From IMG/VR virus record IMGVR_UViG_3300029343_000059, positions 1-12,151 of that record: a stretch of 12,151 nucleotides of DNA; one strand, written 5' to 3'. The DNA is from a virus. Shown piece by piece: positions 5,819-12,151 of this stretch. The notes beneath the pieces are model-generated. The model searched no databases. It worked only from the letters and a program-made list of their open reading frames with translations, and was not told where the DNA came from. Every line of letters starts with the position of its first letter. Positions within the stretch are counted from its first letter, which is position 1. Position numbers and translations under genes: made by a program.

Positions 5819-5829
5819 TCAATGCACCT

Positions 5830-6120
5830 TGCTTTCTTTCATTCTTTTTTGTTGTATTAAAATATTGCTTTATTGTTTACAGTAATTATAACACTTTTGT
5901 ATGCATTCAACAATCATATTTTTCTTTATTGCTTTAATGTTTACAATAATACAAAATAGCATTCCAGCTTTATTTCATAACATTCAATTGCATTCGTTTT
6001 TGGTCTTCCTGTTGTTATTCTCTATATAGTCTATTCTTGTATCTATATGTATTCCCTTTCTGTGGATATAAAGAATATAAAATATATATAAATATACGGA
6101 AAAAACAAAAAGTGCAAAAA
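5830..6120. other. AT-rich tract, a candidate DNA-unwinding element of the replication origin. It contains a DnaA-box-like 9-mer tgtggatat (6061-6069, 8/9 to TGTGGATAA).
   Basis: Long A/T runs (tatatataaatatacggaaaaaacaaaaagtgcaaaaaaatc) with no credible ORF on either strand. It lies immediately beside the tandem iterons. Confidence 0.45.
5885..5913 (-). promoter_or_regulatory. Candidate sigma70-type promoter for the head/packaging operon, with an extended -10.
   Basis: The minus strand reads TGTTATAAT (-10 TATAAT at 5890-5885 preceded by TG). The -35 is weak (TTGTTG, 17-nt spacing). It lies about 67 nt upstream of the portal ATG. Confidence 0.4.
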
Positions 6121-6164
6121 AATCAGTATTTATCGTGGTTTTCAGCACTTTGAAGCGAAAAAAT

Positions 6165-6230
6165 CATACCCACTTTGGCATGGTTTCATACCCACTTTGG
6201 CATGGTTTCATACCCACTTTGGCATGGTTT
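6165..6230. repeat. Three perfect tandem 22-bp direct repeats (iterons): catacccactttggcatggttt.
   Basis: Copies at 6165-6186, 6187-6208 and 6209-6230 are identical. They lie in the 1-kb intergenic region downstream of the prim-pol/rep genes, adjacent to the AT-rich tract. They are a candidate origin or centromere. Confidence 0.9.
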
Positions 6231-6741
6231 CGGCTTTTTGGTGGTCTAAGTTTCGTAAAACCATAAATACCTGTAGACTAGTCAAAAACGGCATTTTTTC
6301 CCGTGTTTATGCGGTAATTCGCATTTTTCCATTCATCACTTTTACATGGTTGCGTAATCACTTTTTTCCGGTTTCTAAATACAGACTTTTGAAGCAAAAA
6401 AAACAGTATTGCCATATTGGGCGTTTTTAGCCATTTTGAGCGTGTTTTGTGTGTTGGACGGTAAATTGTTCATGAAATGTGTTTGCGTGGCTCTACGGGG
6501 CAAATAAACACGTTCACGGGCATTCCAGCATGACTGTTTGATTATTCATGACAACATTTTGCAATCATGGTTCAATTTTCATGTTGTTTGGTGTCAATAT
6601 AAATCACAAATGCCCCTGTGACGCTCTCACGTGGCTTGTATTGGCTTTTGAATGTCTTAATGTACAATTTACCCATAAAGACAATAAAACCGTTCTACGG
6701 GCATTCTATGGCGTTTTACGGCATATTGTAAAAATAGGCAT

Positions 6742-6773
6742 AAAAAAAGCACACGCCAATTTTGCATGTGCTT
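6742..6773 (-). terminator. Candidate intrinsic terminator of the par/rep operon.
   Basis: On the minus-strand transcript: stem AAGCACA / loop of 13 nt / TGTGCTT, followed by UUUUUUU (plus-strand A7 at 6742-6748). Lies 30 nt after the stop of the 107-aa gene. Confidence 0.45.
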
Positions 6774-6804
6774 CATGTATTCTTCATGGTATATTTTATT
6801 GTTT

Positions 6805-7128
6805 CTAAATATTAAACTCTTTTCCAAATGCTACAGAAGCAATCACACGAAAGTCATGCTCCGCCCCATCAACAAAGAAGTCCCCATTTTCAAAACTGAA
6901 TAAAACACCATCAACATCAATTATTTTTCCGTCTTCATCATGCTTCATAATCAAGTATGTATCGTCTTTCTTGTCTTCAAAATGCTTATAAAAATCTTCG
7001 ATTTCTTCCCAGCTGCTAAAATCTTTAAATACTTTTTTCACTTCCACCTTGTTAACCGTGTTATTTGATTCGTCAACGATAACATAAGAATAAATGTCTA
7101 GATTGTTTGAATTTGTTTTTTTACTCAT
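6805..7128 (-). CDS. Hypothetical protein, 107 aa, acidic, last gene of the rep operon.
   Basis: MSKKTNSNNLDIYSYVIVDESNNTVNKVEVKKVFKDFSSWEEIEDFYKHFEDKKDD... SD AAGAAGG upstream of ATG 7128. Co-oriented with and 5 nt downstream of prim-pol. No family recognised. Confidence 0.55.
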   Translation of the reverse strand: MSKKTNSNNLDIYSYVIVDESNNTVNKVEVKKVFKDFSSWEEIEDFYKHFEDKKDDTYLIMKHDEDGKIIDVDGVLFSFENGDFFVDGAEHDFRVIASVAFGKEFNI

Positions 7129-7133
7129 TTTAT

Positions 7134-8078
7134 TTACCTTCTTTCTATGCTTTGAATGTATTTTGATAATGTTGGAATGTCGGAATACAATGCAACAGCT
7201 TTTCCAATGGTCATGCTTGCATAATCTTCACGCAACCATTTGTCACGGAACAATGCGGAATGCTTTATCATTTCAAAAATCATTTGCGGGTCATTATCGG
7301 TGTAAAATGCAAGATAATTGCACAATGCAATGTCCGCTTCGCTTTGTGATGTGTAATTGCTTGTGTTTCCTTCCCACAATGCTTTGATTTTGCCCCCGTT
7401 TTCACCTTTCAGCATAATTTCCAGCAATGTTTGCTGTTTTGTGGTCATTGGTTCAATGCTCTTTGTATCAACAAACAATGCTTGTGTCTTTTGTTCCAGC
7501 TTTTCAATGTATCGTTCATAAACTTTTCGCACTTGATACACGTGCGGTTTGATTTCTTTGCGGTCTTGATACACATTTCCCGTGATTGCAAAATATCTTC
7601 CACCCGTATACATTTCAATTTCGGGTTCTTTCTTTTTTCCGTCAACATTTCGTGTGTATCTGTGAAGCCTTGCAACGTCCAAATCAAATGCATTGCGGTT
7701 TCTATTCAATAACATGTCCCCTTTTACAATGATATGGAAGCCTTTTTTGCTTTGGCTGTATTCGGTGTAACTGTCCAGCATTTCAATAATTTCTTTTGCT
7801 TCGGTCAACACATTGCCTTTGCTGTCAATTACATTGTCAAGGTCAATTGCAATATAACCATGATTGAAGACAAAACCAGCACCAATGTATTTGCATTTTT
7901 TTATTGCTTGCATACAATCTTCAAATGTTGCCCATGTACTGGAAGCGTCTACCTTTGCGGGCATGTCTGTTTTTGCATTGTATGGTTGTTTCTTCGGTGC
8001 GTTCTTTGCAACCTTTCCCCAAACAACCCATTGTGCAAGGTCTTTCAATTCCTGTGGAATGTCTTTGTATTTCTTCAT
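7134..8078 (-). CDS. Bifunctional primase-polymerase (prim-pol N-terminal domain plus PriCT-like C-terminal domain). No helicase domain.
   Basis: Prim-pol motifs: GYIAIDLD (DxD), KKGFHIIV (G-x-H) and IEMYTGGRYFAITGN. The C-terminal ...SQSEADIALCNYLAFYTDNDPQMIFEMIKHSALFRDKW resembles the PriCT-type primase C-terminal domain. No Walker A/B anywhere in the protein. Its ATG overlaps the stop of the upstream 393-aa gene (ATGA). Confidence 0.75.
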   Translation of the reverse strand: MKKYKDIPQELKDLAQWVVWGKVAKNAPKKQPYNAKTDMPAKVDASSTWATFEDCMQAIKKCKYIGAGFVFNHGYIAIDLDNVIDSKGNVLTEAKEIIEMLDSYTEYSQSKKGFHIIVKGDMLLNRNRNAFDLDVARLHRYTRNVDGKKKEPEIEMYTGGRYFAITGNVYQDRKEIKPHVYQVRKVYERYIEKLEQKTQALFVDTKSIEPMTTKQQTLLEIMLKGENGGKIKALWEGNTSNYTSQSEADIALCNYLAFYTDNDPQMIFEMIKHSALFRDKWLREDYASMTIGKAVALYSDIPTLSKYIQSIERR

Positions 8079-9256
8079 TGTGTCTTTCCATCTCTTTTCA
8101 CAAAAATGTCAAAACCGTCCGTGCCTTCGGGTTTCCATTCAAACGATTCAATCATGTCATTTTCCATGAGATACACCAATTGTTTTTGCACGCTTTTCAA
8201 TGTGCGTGATTTCTTTTTTGCATAGCTTTGTTTTCTTTTATAATTTGCGGGTACAATGTCCGCATATTCCAGCAATTTATCAAATGAAATGTGATTGATT
8301 CTATTTGTATAAACTTTTTTGCCCTTCAATGCTCTGATTCTATTGAACAAATACACCTTGATTTTTCTATTTTCCACCGTGTCACGCATTGGTCCAAGCA
8401 AGAAATTTTGTTTTTCATCGTCAATGGTTGCAATCTGTCCAATAGTAAATGCATAATTCAATAATATTGGCGTTCCCCTAAATTCATAATAGTCAGAAAA
8501 TGTTCCATTGGCATTGCGTCCATACCAGCCCGCAACATCAACAAGATTTCCTTTTGTCTGTATTTTTCCAAGTTCGGGATACATGTGCAAAACTTCTTTC
8601 ACATCAAGTTCAATGAAGACTTTTGCCATTTTTCGTATGCTTTCGTCTTGTGCTTTCAATTGTTCGGGTTTTGGGTTTGCGTTCGGGGCTTGCATGATGA
8701 TTCTATACAATTGCACTGGTGTCAATTCTTTTTGACCCATTCGCAACGCATTCCCTATTCCCATTAGTACGGTAAAATCATACCCATTCAATTGAATATT
8801 TTCTTTTTGTGCTGTTTCCTGTATCTGTCTTTTGATTATATTCACGGCACGTGCTTTTCTGTCCGTGTTGAATTCTTTGCCACTTGTCAATGCTGGAAGC
8901 CATTTGTCAAAGGGTAAATCTTTATTGAACACCGTTTTGTTTGCATTGTCATACGGCACAATCAATGTTCCGTATTTTCCACGATTTGTTGCAATTTGTT
9001 TTGGTTTATTGATTTCTTGAAACGTTGCATTGCTTTGCAATATTTCGTCAAGTTCCTGTTGTATGATATCGTCATTTTTTGCTGTCATATCGGACGCATA
9101 AAAACATCCTTCATCATCTTCATCATTTGGAATGTCAATGTATCCTTTATCAATTGCGGTTGCTATGGTTTCAATTAGAATATTTCTTTTTTCGTTTGAG
9201 TCTTCAATGTTTGCAGTTTTGCTTGCTATGTATCTCAATATTTCTTCACCGTACAT
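8075..9256 (-). CDS. Hypothetical protein, 393 aa, translationally coupled to prim-pol. Possibly a replication initiator or origin-binding partner (inference).
   Basis: MYGEEILRYIASKTANIEDSNEKRNILIETIATAIDKGYIDIPNDEDDEG... Strong SD GGAAGGAAAGGG upstream. No nucleotide-binding motif and no family recognised from sequence alone. Confidence 0.7.
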   Translation of the reverse strand: MYGEEILRYIASKTANIEDSNEKRNILIETIATAIDKGYIDIPNDEDDEGCFYASDMTAKNDDIIQQELDEILQSNATFQEINKPKQIATNRGKYGTLIVPYDNANKTVFNKDLPFDKWLPALTSGKEFNTDRKARAVNIIKRQIQETAQKENIQLNGYDFTVLMGIGNALRMGQKELTPVQLYRIIMQAPNANPKPEQLKAQDESIRKMAKVFIELDVKEVLHMYPELGKIQTKGNLVDVAGWYGRNANGTFSDYYEFRGTPILLNYAFTIGQIATIDDEKQNFLLGPMRDTVENRKIKVYLFNRIRALKGKKVYTNRINHISFDKLLEYADIVPANYKRKQSYAKKKSRTLKSVQKQLVYLMENDMIESFEWKPEGTDGFDIFVKRDGKTQ

Positions 9257-9444
9257 TTCTGTCCCTTTCCTTCCAAGTATTCTTCAATTTGCTTTTCTGT
9301 GAAATACCAAACATACCCAATGCGGTTTCCTTTCAATGTCCCATCATCAACACGCCTTTTCACGGTCTTTGTTGAGCATTTGAACATGTTGGCAACTTCT
9401 TCAATGTCATAAATCTTCACATTATCAAGTTTAATCATGTTCAA
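9235..9444 (-). CDS. Small HTH DNA-binding protein of the excisionase/AlpA (HTH_17-like) family.
   Basis: ...KIYDIEEVANMFKCSTKTVKRRVDDGTLKGNRIGYVWYFTEKQIEEYLEG fits the Xis/AlpA-type HTH pattern (E.A..L.VS..TI.R....G.LP..KIG..WRF....I.E..). The track start at 9444 is TTG. ATG at 9438 (MIKLDNV...), 2 nt after the ParG stop, is the more likely start. Confidence 0.7.
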   Translation of the reverse strand: MNMIKLDNVKIYDIEEVANMFKCSTKTVKRRVDDGTLKGNRIGYVWYFTEKQIEEYLEGKGQKCTVKKY

Positions 9445-9716
9445 TCTTCCTTTCTTTTCGCAATGTCCTTGTCTTTCAAAAAGTCGGTCAAAATCATTTC
9501 AAGTGCTTCTTTCAAGGTCATGTTTTCATAGAATGCATAACCCTTTAATTGTTCAACAATTTCTTTATCAATGCGGAATGACACAACAGCTGTTGTTCCT
9601 TTTTCCGTTTTCTTGCGTCCACGCTTCTTTGTTTCCGTGCTTGCTGGTGTTTCATTGCTGGATATTAAAGAATCCGCAACGCTGTTTCCATTCATGTTGT
9701 ATTTTTTATTTGCCAT
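9441..9716 (-). CDS. ParG-like ribbon-helix-helix partition/regulatory protein: basic N-terminal tail plus RHH.
   Basis: MANKKYNMNGNSVADSLISSNETPASTETKKRGRKKTEKGTTAVVSFRIDKEIVEQLKGYAFYENMTLKEALEMILTDFLK. A disordered K/R-rich tail is followed by a beta-alpha-alpha (RHH) pattern. It overlaps the 3' end of ParA by 11 nt. This is the type-Ib arrangement (ParF/ParG-like). Confidence 0.55.
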   Translation of the reverse strand: MANKKYNMNGNSVADSLISSNETPASTETKKRGRKKTEKGTTAVVSFRIDKEIVEQLKGYAFYENMTLKEALEMILTDFLKDKDIAKRKED

Positions 9717-10479
9717 TTTGTTTTGTCTCCCTTCCTAAAATTTCAGACACAATGCCGTTGTAATCAATTGCACCGTTGCTTTTTGGGTCATATTCAAATA
9801 TGTCAACACCGTTGATTGGTGCTTCCGCAATAGCAACATTGTTTCGTATCTTTGTATTGAATACTTTTTGCGGGAATGCTTCTTCCAGCTTTGCAACAAT
9901 GTCTTTATGTAAATTTTTGCGGTTGTCATACATGGTTACAATAACGCCTGTAACGGCAATTGTTTTGTTTGTATATTTCTTTATCGTTTCAATTGTCTTT
10001 TTCAGTTCTACAATTCCCGACATTGCAAGGTATTCCGCTTGTGTTGGGATATAAACTTCATTGCATGCGGTCAATGCGTTGATTGTCAGCAATCCAAGTG
10101 ACGGTGTATTGTCTATCAAAATATAATCATATTCATTCATGATTGGTTGCAATGCTTCTTTCAAAACATATTCACGCCCCGTTTGGTCACTGATATTCTT
10201 TTCCGCAATGGTCAATCTTTGGTCTGTTGCTATCAAATCACAATTTGAAAGTTTGTTGATTGCTTCTTTTGCTTCACATTCACCCGTCATTACATCAAAC
10301 ATTGTGTATTTCAATGATTTTGCGTCAATTCCAAGTGAAATGGTCATACTTCCTTGCGGGTCAAAATCAACCAACAAAACACGCTTCCTGTTTCGTGCTA
10401 GTCCAACACCAATGTTGATTGTGCTTGTGGTTTTTCCAACACCGCCTTTTTGATTCACTATTGCAATAATTTTTGCCAT
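9706..10479 (-). CDS. parA: ParA/Soj-family partition ATPase (small, type Ib).
   Basis: MAKIIAIVNQKGGVGKTTSTINIGVGLAR...VLLVDFDPQGSMT... carries the deviant Walker A KGGVGKTT and a DxD motif. 257 aa, no N-terminal HTH. Confidence 0.9.
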   Translation of the reverse strand: MAKIIAIVNQKGGVGKTTSTINIGVGLARNRKRVLLVDFDPQGSMTISLGIDAKSLKYTMFDVMTGECEAKEAINKLSNCDLIATDQRLTIAEKNISDQTGREYVLKEALQPIMNEYDYILIDNTPSLGLLTINALTACNEVYIPTQAEYLAMSGIVELKKTIETIKKYTNKTIAVTGVIVTMYDNRKNLHKDIVAKLEEAFPQKVFNTKIRNNVAIAEAPINGVDIFEYDPKSNGAIDYNGIVSEILGRETKQNGK

Positions 10480-10512: not shown

Positions 10513-10809
10513 TTAAGAACATAAATTCTCTTTAATATCTTTACCCGTTAAATCTTTATATTTATTTTCTATTCTTTCTAGTTTCTCTTTTCTATCATTT
10601 GCCCACTGTTCAGCAAAATTGTGAAGTTCTTCAACATCTTCTATTGATTCATCTTCATTTAAACGACCTAGTGCCATATCAAGCGACATATAAGCAATTA
10701 GTTCCTCTGTTTTGTCAACTGTGTCTATGGCTTTATCATAATCCTTTTGATATGTTTCATATTCTCTAATTAATTTTTGAGTTTCCTTTGTTGTTTCCAT
10801 TTCTTTCAC
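10513..10809 (-). CDS. Hypothetical, strongly acidic, predicted all-helical protein of 98 aa.
   Basis: MKEMETTKETQKLIREYETYQKDYDKAIDTVDKTEELIAYMSLDMALGRLNEDESIEDVEELHNFAEQWANDRKEKLERIENKYKDL. About 30 D/E against about 18 K/R. Its ATG overlaps the stop of the upstream 68-aa gene. Confidence 0.5.
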   Translation of the reverse strand: MKEMETTKETQKLIREYETYQKDYDKAIDTVDKTEELIAYMSLDMALGRLNEDESIEDVEELHNFAEQWANDRKEKLERIENKYKDLTGKDIKENLCS

Positions 10810-11012: not shown

Positions 11013-11079
11013 GTAAACATTCCACCTTTCTTTTTTTATTTCTTCATTGCATGTTTGCTTGTATGTTCTTGCATGTCCA

Positions 11080-11108
11080 TATTATAGACAATAACAAAAT
11101 AAATTGCA
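11080..11108 (-). promoter_or_regulatory. Candidate sigma70 promoter of the par/rep operon: -35 TTGCAA, 17-nt spacer, -10 TATAAT.
   Basis: The minus strand reads TTGCAA(11108-11103)-tttattttgttattgtc-TATAAT(11085-11080). The -10 is perfect and the -35 is 4/6. It lies about 70 nt upstream of the first gene of the operon. Confidence 0.55.
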
Positions 11109-11177
11109 ATAGGTTTCTGAAAATGTTGCTTTTTTTCTTTTTTGTTTACATGTTTACGCTAATAAATTAAACACAAT

Positions 11178-11224
11178 AAAAAAACACCCTTCATAAATGC
11201 GTTCTACGGCACTTTTTAAGGGTG
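11178..11224 (-). terminator. Candidate intrinsic terminator after the head-closure gene, ending the head/packaging operon.
   Basis: Minus-strand transcript: CACCCUU (stem), a loop of about 26 nt, AAGGGUG (stem), then UUUUUUU. The loop is unusually long, which lowers confidence. Confidence 0.35.
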
Positions 11225-11341
11225 GTTAATATAAATTATCATTTGAACACAAAAACGCCAAATAAGGGCATTTCTGTGCGTTCTGCGTGGTATTACAATT
11301 AATCTAGGTTGTATGGTAGTACATTTTCCATTTTTTCATGG

Positions 11342-11781: not shown

Positions 11782-12151
11782 CTATAATGCATTTATGTAT
11801 TCATTATATCTTTCGTGTAAAACAACATATGCGTCCAGCAATGACGCAAAACCGTCAATGCGTTGTTTTGCCCCGTTTGCCTTTGTTGGGACAATATTGC
11901 CGTTGCGGTCTTCAACACATTTCACATTTGTCATGCACCATTTCAAAATCGGGTTGTTGTTATAGTTTATTTTTTTAGCTTCCAAATCAGCACCCAAATG
12001 TTGCATTGGCAATGACAATGTCTTTGCACCTTGAATGACACGCACCATGTTGAATCCATAACTCTCGCACTCCTCACGCCAATACGTTGAAGACCAGCTG
12101 TCATAACCTATCCATGCAATCTGTATCCCATGCACCTTGACCATTTCAACA
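11782..12151 (-). CDS. terL: Terminase large subunit, 3' (C-terminal nuclease) portion. Same gene as 1..1387, across the circular join.
   Basis: Track ORF MVKVHGIQIAWIGYDSWSSTYWREECESYGFNMVRV...HERYNEYINAL. The M shown is internal, since there is no stop upstream before the window edge. In-frame with the minus-strand ORF at 1-1387 (codon phase checked: 112 and 1387 are both 1 mod 3). Confidence 0.9.
   Translation of the reverse strand, partial: VEMVKVHGIQIAWIGYDSWSSTYWREECESYGFNMVRVIQGAKTLSLPMQHLGADLEAKKINYNNNPILKWCMTNVKCVEDRNGNIVPTKANGAKQRIDGFASLLDAYVVLHERYNEYINAL
12033..12151. repeat. 119-nt exact duplicate of positions 1-119. This is a wrap-around of a circular contig (period 12,032 bp).
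   Basis: Both copies read gaatgacacgcaccatgttgaatccataactctcgcactcctcacgccaatacgttgaagaccagctgtcataacc...ccatttcaaca. The duplicate lies inside the TerL coding sequence, so it is not a regulatory repeat. Confidence 0.9.

Follow-up and report, generated by a model that had tools for sequence, protein, structure and literature searches.

A candidate iteron origin between the rep operon and the head genes

The DNA analyzed here is a 12,151-nt stretch (IMG/VR virus record IMGVR_UViG_3300029343_000059), referred to below as the window. Its ends are identical over 119 nt (1-119 and 12033-12151), so that it represents a complete circle of 12,032 bp, and by its gene content it appears to be a phage satellite from the human gut that forms its own capsid. 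For the gene-free region at 5819-6804, the best explanation is a composite control region, made up of the terminator of the rep operon, an iteron origin together with its AT-rich tract, and the promoter of the head operon. We regard it as probable that the region is an iteron replication origin, and the narrower proposal that its 22-nt repeats are bound by p393, a 393-aa protein of the same element, has on present sequence comparisons an even chance of being correct. Confidence in the two proposals is held at these levels because some related satellites carry the arrays without p393.

The three perfect tandem 22-nt copies described in an earlier note on this DNA were recovered at 6165-6230 (iteron array 1, plus strand), with CATACCCACTTTGGCATGGTTT as the unit, or AAACCATGCCAAAGTGGGTATG in the sense of the genes. 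Tandem Repeats Finder (TRF) placed the array at 6164-6231 (3.1 copies, 100% match, score 136), and the consensus of the 22-mer family is YATACYCACTTT(GGC/TAC)ATGGTTT. Iteron array 2, at 6331-6374, runs the same way as array 1 and comprises two 22-mers of degenerate sequence, ATTCATCACTTTTACATGGTTG and CGTAATCACTTTTTTCCGGTTT, with one core mismatch in 6331-6352 and two in 6353-6374; the relative L002 has a block with 92% identity to it. Tandem direct repeats of ~17 to 22 bp in helical phase, as expected of an iteron-type (class A theta) origin, are thus present in the region, and so is, on base composition, an adjacent AT-rich region. The GC content is 0.19 to 0.27 over 5819-6130, compared with 0.374 for the whole circle, which bears out the AT-rich stretch of the earlier note. 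The tract itself extends over 5901-6130, with a core at 6061-6130 (GC content, 0.19) and a remainder at 5901-6060 (GC content, 0.27), and it contains short AT tandem repeats at 6066-6096; read with the genes (6096-6066), they come after array 1 at a distance of 68 nt. Its composition makes it a candidate DNA-unwinding region.

Two copies of TTTGAAGCRAAAAAA had also been noted, and both were found, as TTTGAAGCGAAAAAA at 6149-6163 and TTTGAAGCAAAAAAA at 6388-6402 (plus strand), with no others in the window; this pair of direct repeats brackets the iteron-bearing segment. The region contains no credible open reading frame (ORF), as had been claimed: only ORFs of 42 to 86 aa were present, without a Pfam match and conserved only in near-identical relatives. 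Additions to the earlier description are the degenerate 22-mers at 6331-6374, the terminator at 6774-6746, and, beside the portal ATG, a candidate promoter of the head operon with its leader.

Related satellites and their replication modules

The search for the 22-mer in other elements that the earlier note had proposed led to a group of related satellites. The exact 22-mer occurs in one IMG/VR contig, whereas a search with the tandem-unit pattern recovered eight real relatives from human-gut metagenomes, mostly as contigs of 11.6 to 12.4 kb, whose assembler-type terminal overlaps indicate that they are circles. One further match from the metagenome scan, L156, was rejected as a chance match inside a coding gene, and a one-unit 22-mer pattern scan of genome contigs gave single chance matches only. 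A portal-based search, which is independent of the repeats and free of 22-mer recovery bias, added 80 loci, mostly of 4 to 15 kb. The relatives, from human-gut metagenomes and IMG/VR, number ~90 in total, and many of the complete ones are 11.6 to 15 kb long.

Two types of replication module occur on similar backbones. The type A module, which comprises an AlpA-like protein, p393, and a primase-polymerase (prim-pol), is present in the window, L153, L155, and L158 and, in distant form, in L157, L166, and L168. In the type B module (L002, L014, L150, L151, L152, L154, L164, and L167), the AlpA-like protein is accompanied by an unrelated Rep of 539 to 572 aa, here called Rep543, with an AEP-like N terminus and a winged-helix-like C terminus. 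Type-B elements also have 4 to 12 copies of a ~30-nt repeat with the core AAAAACCGTCCTTTTTAG. Because these repeats occur in every Rep543 element, with or without 22-mers (L164 and L167 included), they are probably the iterons of Rep543 itself; the window keeps a single copy (6284-6299).

Some relatives without ParA carry a DUF7659+NUMOD protein instead. Arrays of 21 to 22 nt containing GGAAGTGTTCC are located upstream of the DUF7659+NUMOD gene in L150 (1939-2011) and L151 (7857-7922), and the iterons of L163 (3597-3681) are formed by a core similar to GGAAGTGTTCC. Most relatives have, close to the 22-mers, one or two copies of a 17-nt palindrome with a variable center, GTATGCTCACAGCATAC (it was seen in L153, L157, L158, and type-B intergenic regions); the window has none.

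Arrays across the p393 family

An exhaustive HMMER search yielded a p393 profile based on 139 representatives at 50% identity. The profile detects homologues in ten elements (the window, L153, L155, L158, L157, L166, L168, L170, L211, and L227), and all ten possess a near-perfect tandem array with a unit of 21 to 23 nt in 2.8 to 4.0 copies. In the three most distant ones, L170, L211, and L227, the array starts no more than ~12 nt past the stop codon of the p393-family ORF and precedes the primase gene. The gene-strand units there are ACCTAGCATTAAGTGGTGATAC in L211 (4.0 copies of 22 nt), TACCCCGTAGAAGTGGTAACGC in L170 (2.9 copies of 22 nt), and CCCCCCGAAAACTGGCTACCATA in L227 (3.0 copies of 23 nt). 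An AAGTG core (gene strand) is shared by nine of the ten lineage variants, the unit of L227 having AACTG at this place, and outside AAGTG the unit differs with the p393 lineage. The window-type core CACTT..CA.GGTT (plus strand) is retained in L166 and L168, where p393 is only 27 to 33% identical and the base composition is different; the 6-nt spacer between the cores is wholly different in these two elements.

The copy number of the 22-mers ranges from 2 to 8 between relatives. Within an element the units are homogenized, but even near-identical elements have different ones, with three units of the GGC type in the window, three of the TAC type in L153, and three of the CATACT/TAC type in L158. 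Such variation in copy number, together with homogenization within the element, would fit protein-binding iterons that act at the DNA level and belong with a replication initiator. After a further 65 to 68 nt, the iterons of L211 and L170 give way to tandem repeats of the 9-mer TATAAGCT, an arrangement that resembles that of the window; we give this likeness modest weight because L166 has no such layout.

In L163, L172, L185, and L232, an unrelated protein of 466 to 600 aa occupies the position of p393 and is likewise followed by a 21- to 22-nt array (3 to 4 copies) and then by the primase gene. A comparison with hhalign gave no link between these proteins and the p393 family. Since unrelated proteins are paired with an array in the same place, a gene in the initiator position plus iterons appears to be a general cassette of this satellite group.

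The earlier note had recognized only a prim-pol without helicase, plus a 393-aa partner, as replication proteins. The prim-pol (7134-8078, minus strand; 314 aa) has only an AEP domain and an NrS-1-type helix-bundle domain (HBD). In the two relatives scanned for this feature, L211 (4794-6755) and L163 (3814-5829), a single protein of 653 to 672 aa unites the prim-pol with a DnaB_C helicase domain. The window prim-pol lineage therefore seems to have lost the DnaB-like helicase domain, and with no DnaB-like half in its 314-aa prim-pol the element would have to borrow a helicase.

Type-B relatives that carry the 22-mers

Six type-B elements (L002, L014, L150, L151, L152, and L154) have 3 to 8 copies of the type-A 22-mer together with the unrelated Rep, which is 543 to 561 aa long in these elements, and no p393-family ORF, so that p393 cannot bind in cis there. 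These elements suggest a different explanation, in which the 22-mers are bound by a factor not encoded by the carrier (a host protein, a helper phage protein, or the p393 of a coresident type-A satellite) and serve as a site for replication or induction in trans. The Rep543 proteins of the six carriers are 78 to 87% identical to one another, suggesting that the arrays have been maintained and are no recent accident, and the core of the 22-mer, which has changed unusually little among p393 proteins of 27 to 33% identity, likewise speaks for such a binder. However, none of the large phage contigs in IMG/VR has tandem arrays of this core, and a helper phage that shares the iterons is therefore not supported. 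Furthermore, the type-B elements L164 and L167 do without 22-mers, and in every other lineage the arrays adjoin, and vary with, the element's own initiator-position gene. We consider an external binder rather unlikely as the general explanation of the repeats.

For the type-B elements themselves, the 22-mer block appears to be a small type-A-like patch that has been retained, because the backbones of these elements are like that of L167. Three possibilities remain for it: p393 supplied in trans by a coresident type-A satellite (as hitchhiking or interference), a host factor, or a relic of recombination. A more speculative extension, which we think unlikely, is that the iterons are a currency shared among competing satellites, type-B elements having captured type-A 22-mers either for replication in trans or for titration of the initiator as an incompatibility weapon. 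If this were true, it would amount to parasitism or interference between satellites at the level of the origin, and p393 would represent a new initiator family that works with prim-pols.

Other proteins were considered as binders of the 22-mers and dropped. Rep543 was rejected on account of L164 and L167, which have Rep543 and the ~30-nt repeats and no 22-mers, and no subregion of Rep543 tracks the 22-mers. The 98-aa protein (10513-10809), which is 92% identical between the window and L002, is absent from L014 and others, and the HNH endonuclease and the head-completion protein were set aside for the same kind of reason.

Weight of evidence and proposed mechanism

Besides these six type-B elements, several observations weigh against an iteron origin recognized by p393. 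A DnaA-box-like 9-mer, ATATCCACA (6061-6069, minus strand), is present as the earlier note had stated and matches at 8 of 9 positions, but such sites occur at chance level, with two matches of at most one mismatch in the window against a shuffle mean of 4.6, and the 9-mer was not seen in the intergenic sequences of distant relatives that were read. A cumulative GC-skew analysis, suggested earlier as a check, gave a monotonic skew over the circle without an origin signal; the skew is uninformative here because all of the genes are on one strand. No helicase or P-loop domain was detected in the larger ORFs scanned, which covered the whole rep operon. The first relatives were obtained through the 22-mer pattern and are a biased sample in this respect.

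The protein itself adds a further difficulty, as p393 has no recognizable DNA-binding domain. It had no match in Pfam, PHROG, NCBIfam, or PDB sequences, including a profile search of the PDB sequences, and none in the phage collection. No Rep_3/RepA-type winged-helix initiator was detected beside the iterons, where p393 and the 107-aa protein (p107) both lack family matches. The AlphaFold2 (AF2) model of p393 is poor (pLDDT, 50) and was built on a shallow alignment, since word-indexed searches returned only close or L166-like relatives, and a Foldseek search against PDB gave nothing significant (best E value, 0.24). A C-terminal helix and two strands are predicted, and many of the nonsignificant fold matches are winged-helix proteins, which is only a hint that p393 might contain a winged helix. 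A weak homologue (24% identity; E = 1e-5), a hypothetical protein of 421 aa, is encoded in a 52-kb plasmid of Anaerotruncus colihominis from human feces (L241; NZ_CP094683.1, 33687-34952), where no clear iteron array is found beside the gene.

The earlier note had seen in the region the classic layout of an iteron-controlled origin. Of that layout, the DnaA box is the part that did not hold, whereas the arrays belong to the replication module, follow the protein lineage across the p393 family, and lie 68 nt from the AT-rich tract. In the direction of the genes, the rep terminator is followed after ~340 nt by the arrays (the two degenerate copies and then the three perfect ones), a 68-nt gap, the AT-rich tract, and finally the candidate promoter of the portal-protease-capsid operon with its putative leader. 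The repeats, the AT-rich tract, and the terminator are observed, as are the link of the arrays with the p393 family and the replication module and the covariation of the unit outside AAGTG; from these observations we infer the following mechanism and mode of replication. The 22-mers would act as iterons, that is, as binding sites spaced two helical turns apart. p393 would bind them, melt the neighboring AT-rich tract, and pass the melted DNA on to the adjacent prim-pol, which has no helicase domain. A host or a helper phage would presumably supply the replicative helicase and the remaining replisome, and array 2 may serve in copy control or pairing.

Alternative roles of the repeats

The earlier note had offered the ParG centromere as an alternative, and this was not favored by our comparisons. 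According to this explanation, the 22-mers are a partition centromere bound by the ParG-like ribbon-helix-helix (RHH) protein (9441-9716) together with ParA (9706-10479). The element encodes ParA and a small Arc/RHH-like protein, many array-bearing relatives also have ParA, and type Ib par systems commonly have direct-repeat arrays as their centromeres. Yet five relatives (L014, L150, L151, L152, and L154, of which L151 and L154 are complete circles) keep the 22-mers without a detectable ParA, and L167, with a ParA 86% identical and an RHH protein 58% identical to those of L002, has no 22-mers. Conversely, the RHH proteins of the window and L002 are only ~35% identical, and yet both elements have the 22-mers. 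Between the RHH gene and the arrays, which are 2.7 kb farther downstream, there are four genes, including the rep genes, and upstream of the par genes is a separate AT-rich gap (11013-11341) with repeats of its own. We therefore regard a centromere as very unlikely.

The position of the arrays, 350 to 550 nt upstream of the portal start, would also suit an operator or enhancer of the head (portal) operon, for example, for a late activator of the helper or for the AlpA-like helix-turn-helix (HTH) protein, and type-B relatives have a solitary 22-mer ~200 nt upstream of the portal gene. In seven relatives (L211, L170, L227, L163, L172, L185, and L232), however, the arrays are located between the initiator-position and primase genes, ~3 kb from the portal gene, and in L211 the portal gene comes 53 nt after the primase gene. 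Control of the head operon by the repeats is thus highly improbable.

Since the element has its own HNH, TerS, and TerL, and sites bound by TerS can be repeated sequences, a terminase recognition site (pac or cosB-like) was also considered. The comparison between L167 and L002 speaks against it, because L167 has no 22-mers while its TerS and TerL are 88.5% and 90% identical, respectively, to those of L002. In addition, the terS gene (1390-1797) is 4 kb from the repeats, and the place expected for cos is the HNH-TerS gap (1798-2124), which has an inverted repeat of its own; only a remote chance is left for this explanation. The gap is noncoding, the arms of its 31-nt inverted repeat (1884-1914 and 2092-2122) are 87% complementary, and it is likely to be the cos region of an HNH-type packaging system.

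A structured noncoding RNA (ncRNA) gene, which the earlier note had named as an outcome contrary to its proposal, received almost no credence. The hairpin and T-run at 6309-6329 and a minus-strand promoter-like site at 6732-6703 could belong to such a gene, but an Rfam search gave no match up to E = 1, and the folding of the two strands was no better than that of shuffled sequences (z = -1.49 and +1.30). The variation from 2 to 8 copies between relatives and the homogenized units are also unlike a fixed fold.

Comparison with known origins

The iteron origins of plasmids, such as the R6K gamma ori with its 22-bp iterons, pPS10, RK2 oriV, and P1 oriR, share with the window ~22-bp tandem repeats in one orientation and two helical turns apart, an AT-rich neighbor, a second, degenerate repeat cluster nearby, and an initiator encoded in the same module, for which p393 is the candidate here. 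They differ in that the window has no detectable Rep_3/RepA-type initiator, the candidate being a protein without a known domain, and no credible DnaA box. Moreover, the partner is an archaeo-eukaryotic-type prim-pol, where the plasmids use the DnaG of the host, and the carrier is a phage satellite.

Replication of satellite P4 requires two separate clusters of one direct repeat (ori and crr), comparable to the two arrays of the window, and the P4 clusters are bound by an element-encoded, primase-linked protein, alpha, as p393 would be here. Alpha, however, fuses primase, helicase, and DNA-binding domains, the repeats of P4 are octamers, and no sequence similarity between P4 and the window element was found. 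The O/ori cassettes of lambda and related phages resemble the satellites in that the initiator gene is tied to the iterons, the array abutting the initiator-position gene in distant satellite relatives, and in that the helicase is recruited and would not be intrinsic in the window lineage. In contrast, the iterons of lambda are 19-mers with inverted repeats and are located within O itself, and O and p393 are unrelated.

In phage-inducible chromosomal islands (PICIs), the ori sits 3' of the primase/replication genes (PMC6092414), and the iterons form two sets of 5- to 6-nt repeats around an AT-rich center, some in opposite orientation (PMC9371898, PMC6092414). As Rep, PICIs have a self-loading helicase whose C-terminal domain is a winged helix (PMC9371898). 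Like PICIs and the Staphylococcus aureus pathogenicity islands (SaPIs), the window is a satellite that has genes of the AlpA-like and primase types and two sets of repeats, and it has head genes as does the capsid-forming class of PICIs. The position of the region is also that of a PICI/SaPI origin, directly 3' of the pri/rep genes, as it follows p393, the prim-pol, the 107-aa gene, and the terminator. The window differs from these islands in that its units are 22 nt long and all on one strand, the spacer between the arrays has a GC content of 0.39, the rep operon has no helicase-type Rep, and ParA is found in place of an integrase.

Judged by the defining features of the two families, the region is neither an iteron-plasmid origin nor a PICI origin, and BLAST searches of phage and plasmid collections gave no match to it. 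As an origin it is of an ordinary kind, and what is new is the combination of an uncharacterized candidate initiator family with a helicase-less prim-pol. If it is simply an origin, the region would be useful for annotation and vector design and not surprising. It provides a concrete origin candidate for the head-only satellites of ~12 kb from human-gut Firmicutes, a large and unstudied group that has ParA instead of an integrase, as well as a likely job, origin recognition, for an unannotated protein family with 139 representatives. Iterons common to satellites with unrelated Rep proteins are an unusual pattern that could reveal cross talk between mobile elements.

Other elements of the control region

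The inter-array spacer (6231-6330; GC content, 0.39), homologous blocks of which are seen in relatives, contains one AAAAAC(C/G)G...TTTTT unit (6284-6299) and the hairpin ATGCGGTAATTCGCAT with its T-run (6309-6329). The earlier note had assigned three gcatttttt(t)cc sites to one motif family, but side-by-side reading of related intergenic regions showed that they are parts of three different blocks. The site at ~6360 (6359-6374) is a degenerate 22-mer, whereas that at ~6321 is the 3' arm of the hairpin plus the T-run, where the flanking TTTATGCG and the T-run recur in all relatives and the stem does not. The site at ~6291 is the lone window copy of the ~30-nt repeat, of which relatives with a different Rep have multiple copies.

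The rep-proximal noncoding segment (6403-6745) has ACGGGCATTC twice (6516-6525 and 6697-6706), and looser TAGAAnGCC-type motifs related to it also occur in relatives. The promoter-like site mentioned above (6732-6703, minus strand) is in this segment. Bordering the segment at 6746-6774 (minus strand) is the strong intrinsic terminator of the rep operon, an 11-bp stem and a T-run just past the last gene of the operon; type-B relatives have an equivalent GC hairpin behind their Rep gene.

On the portal side, direct reading of the sequence suggested a candidate sigma-70-type promoter for the head operon at 5885-5913 (minus strand), with TTGTTG, a 17-nt spacer, and the extended -10 element TGtTATAAT. 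An automated promoter scan omitted this candidate (5913-5885), the -35 element of which matches at only 3 of 6 positions. The putative leader of the portal/head operon (5819-5884, minus strand) contains a Shine-Dalgarno-like AAGGTG (5830-5825) and, just past the -10 element, TGTAAACA (5881-5874), which adjoins a TATAAT-like hexamer in the related portal leaders that were read. A 24-nt direct repeat has its copies at 5863-5886 and 5927-5950.

Gene content of the element and minor observations

All credible genes of the window are on the minus strand. The gene order starts with a TerS-like protein (1390-1797), followed by TerL (545 aa), which is intact only across the circle junction, a head-completion protein, the 68-aa and 98-aa proteins (the latter at 10513-10809), ParA (9706-10479), the Arc/RHH ParG-like protein (9441-9716), and an AlpA-like HTH_17 protein (9235-9444). 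Next come p393 (8075-9256), the candidate iteron-binding initiator, which lies outside the control region and would act on it in trans; the prim-pol (7134-8078), its presumed priming partner; and a 107-aa protein (6805-7128), the last gene of the rep operon. After the control region follow the portal, the prohead protease, the major capsid protein, a gp6-like connector, and the HNH endonuclease. The element thus combines head genes (capsid, portal, protease, connectors, HNH, TerS, and TerL) with ParA and the RHH and AlpA-like proteins, and neither tail genes nor an integrase are among the genes of the circle. Because of this set of head genes without tail genes or integrase, we assign it as a capsid-forming, head-only, tail-less phage satellite, comparable to capsid-forming PICIs (cf-PICIs), that carries a plasmid-type ParA. 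Shine-Dalgarno-like sequences before the portal gene in the window and its relatives, together with the weak p393 homologue in the Anaerotruncus colihominis plasmid, point to hosts among the Firmicutes/Clostridia.

The 107-aa gene is also found behind the unrelated Rep543 in L154 (330-656; 82% identity), and for this reason it is probably accessory cargo that moves independently of the rep type. The AT-rich gap at 11013-11341, upstream of the 68-aa, 98-aa, and ParA genes, holds CATGTAAACA and TGTTTACATG. It has the motif TGTTTACA in common with 5874-5881 and 5938-5945, where the motif stands just past the -10 element of portal promoter candidates; the motif also occurs in the portal leaders of relatives and may be a shared operator.

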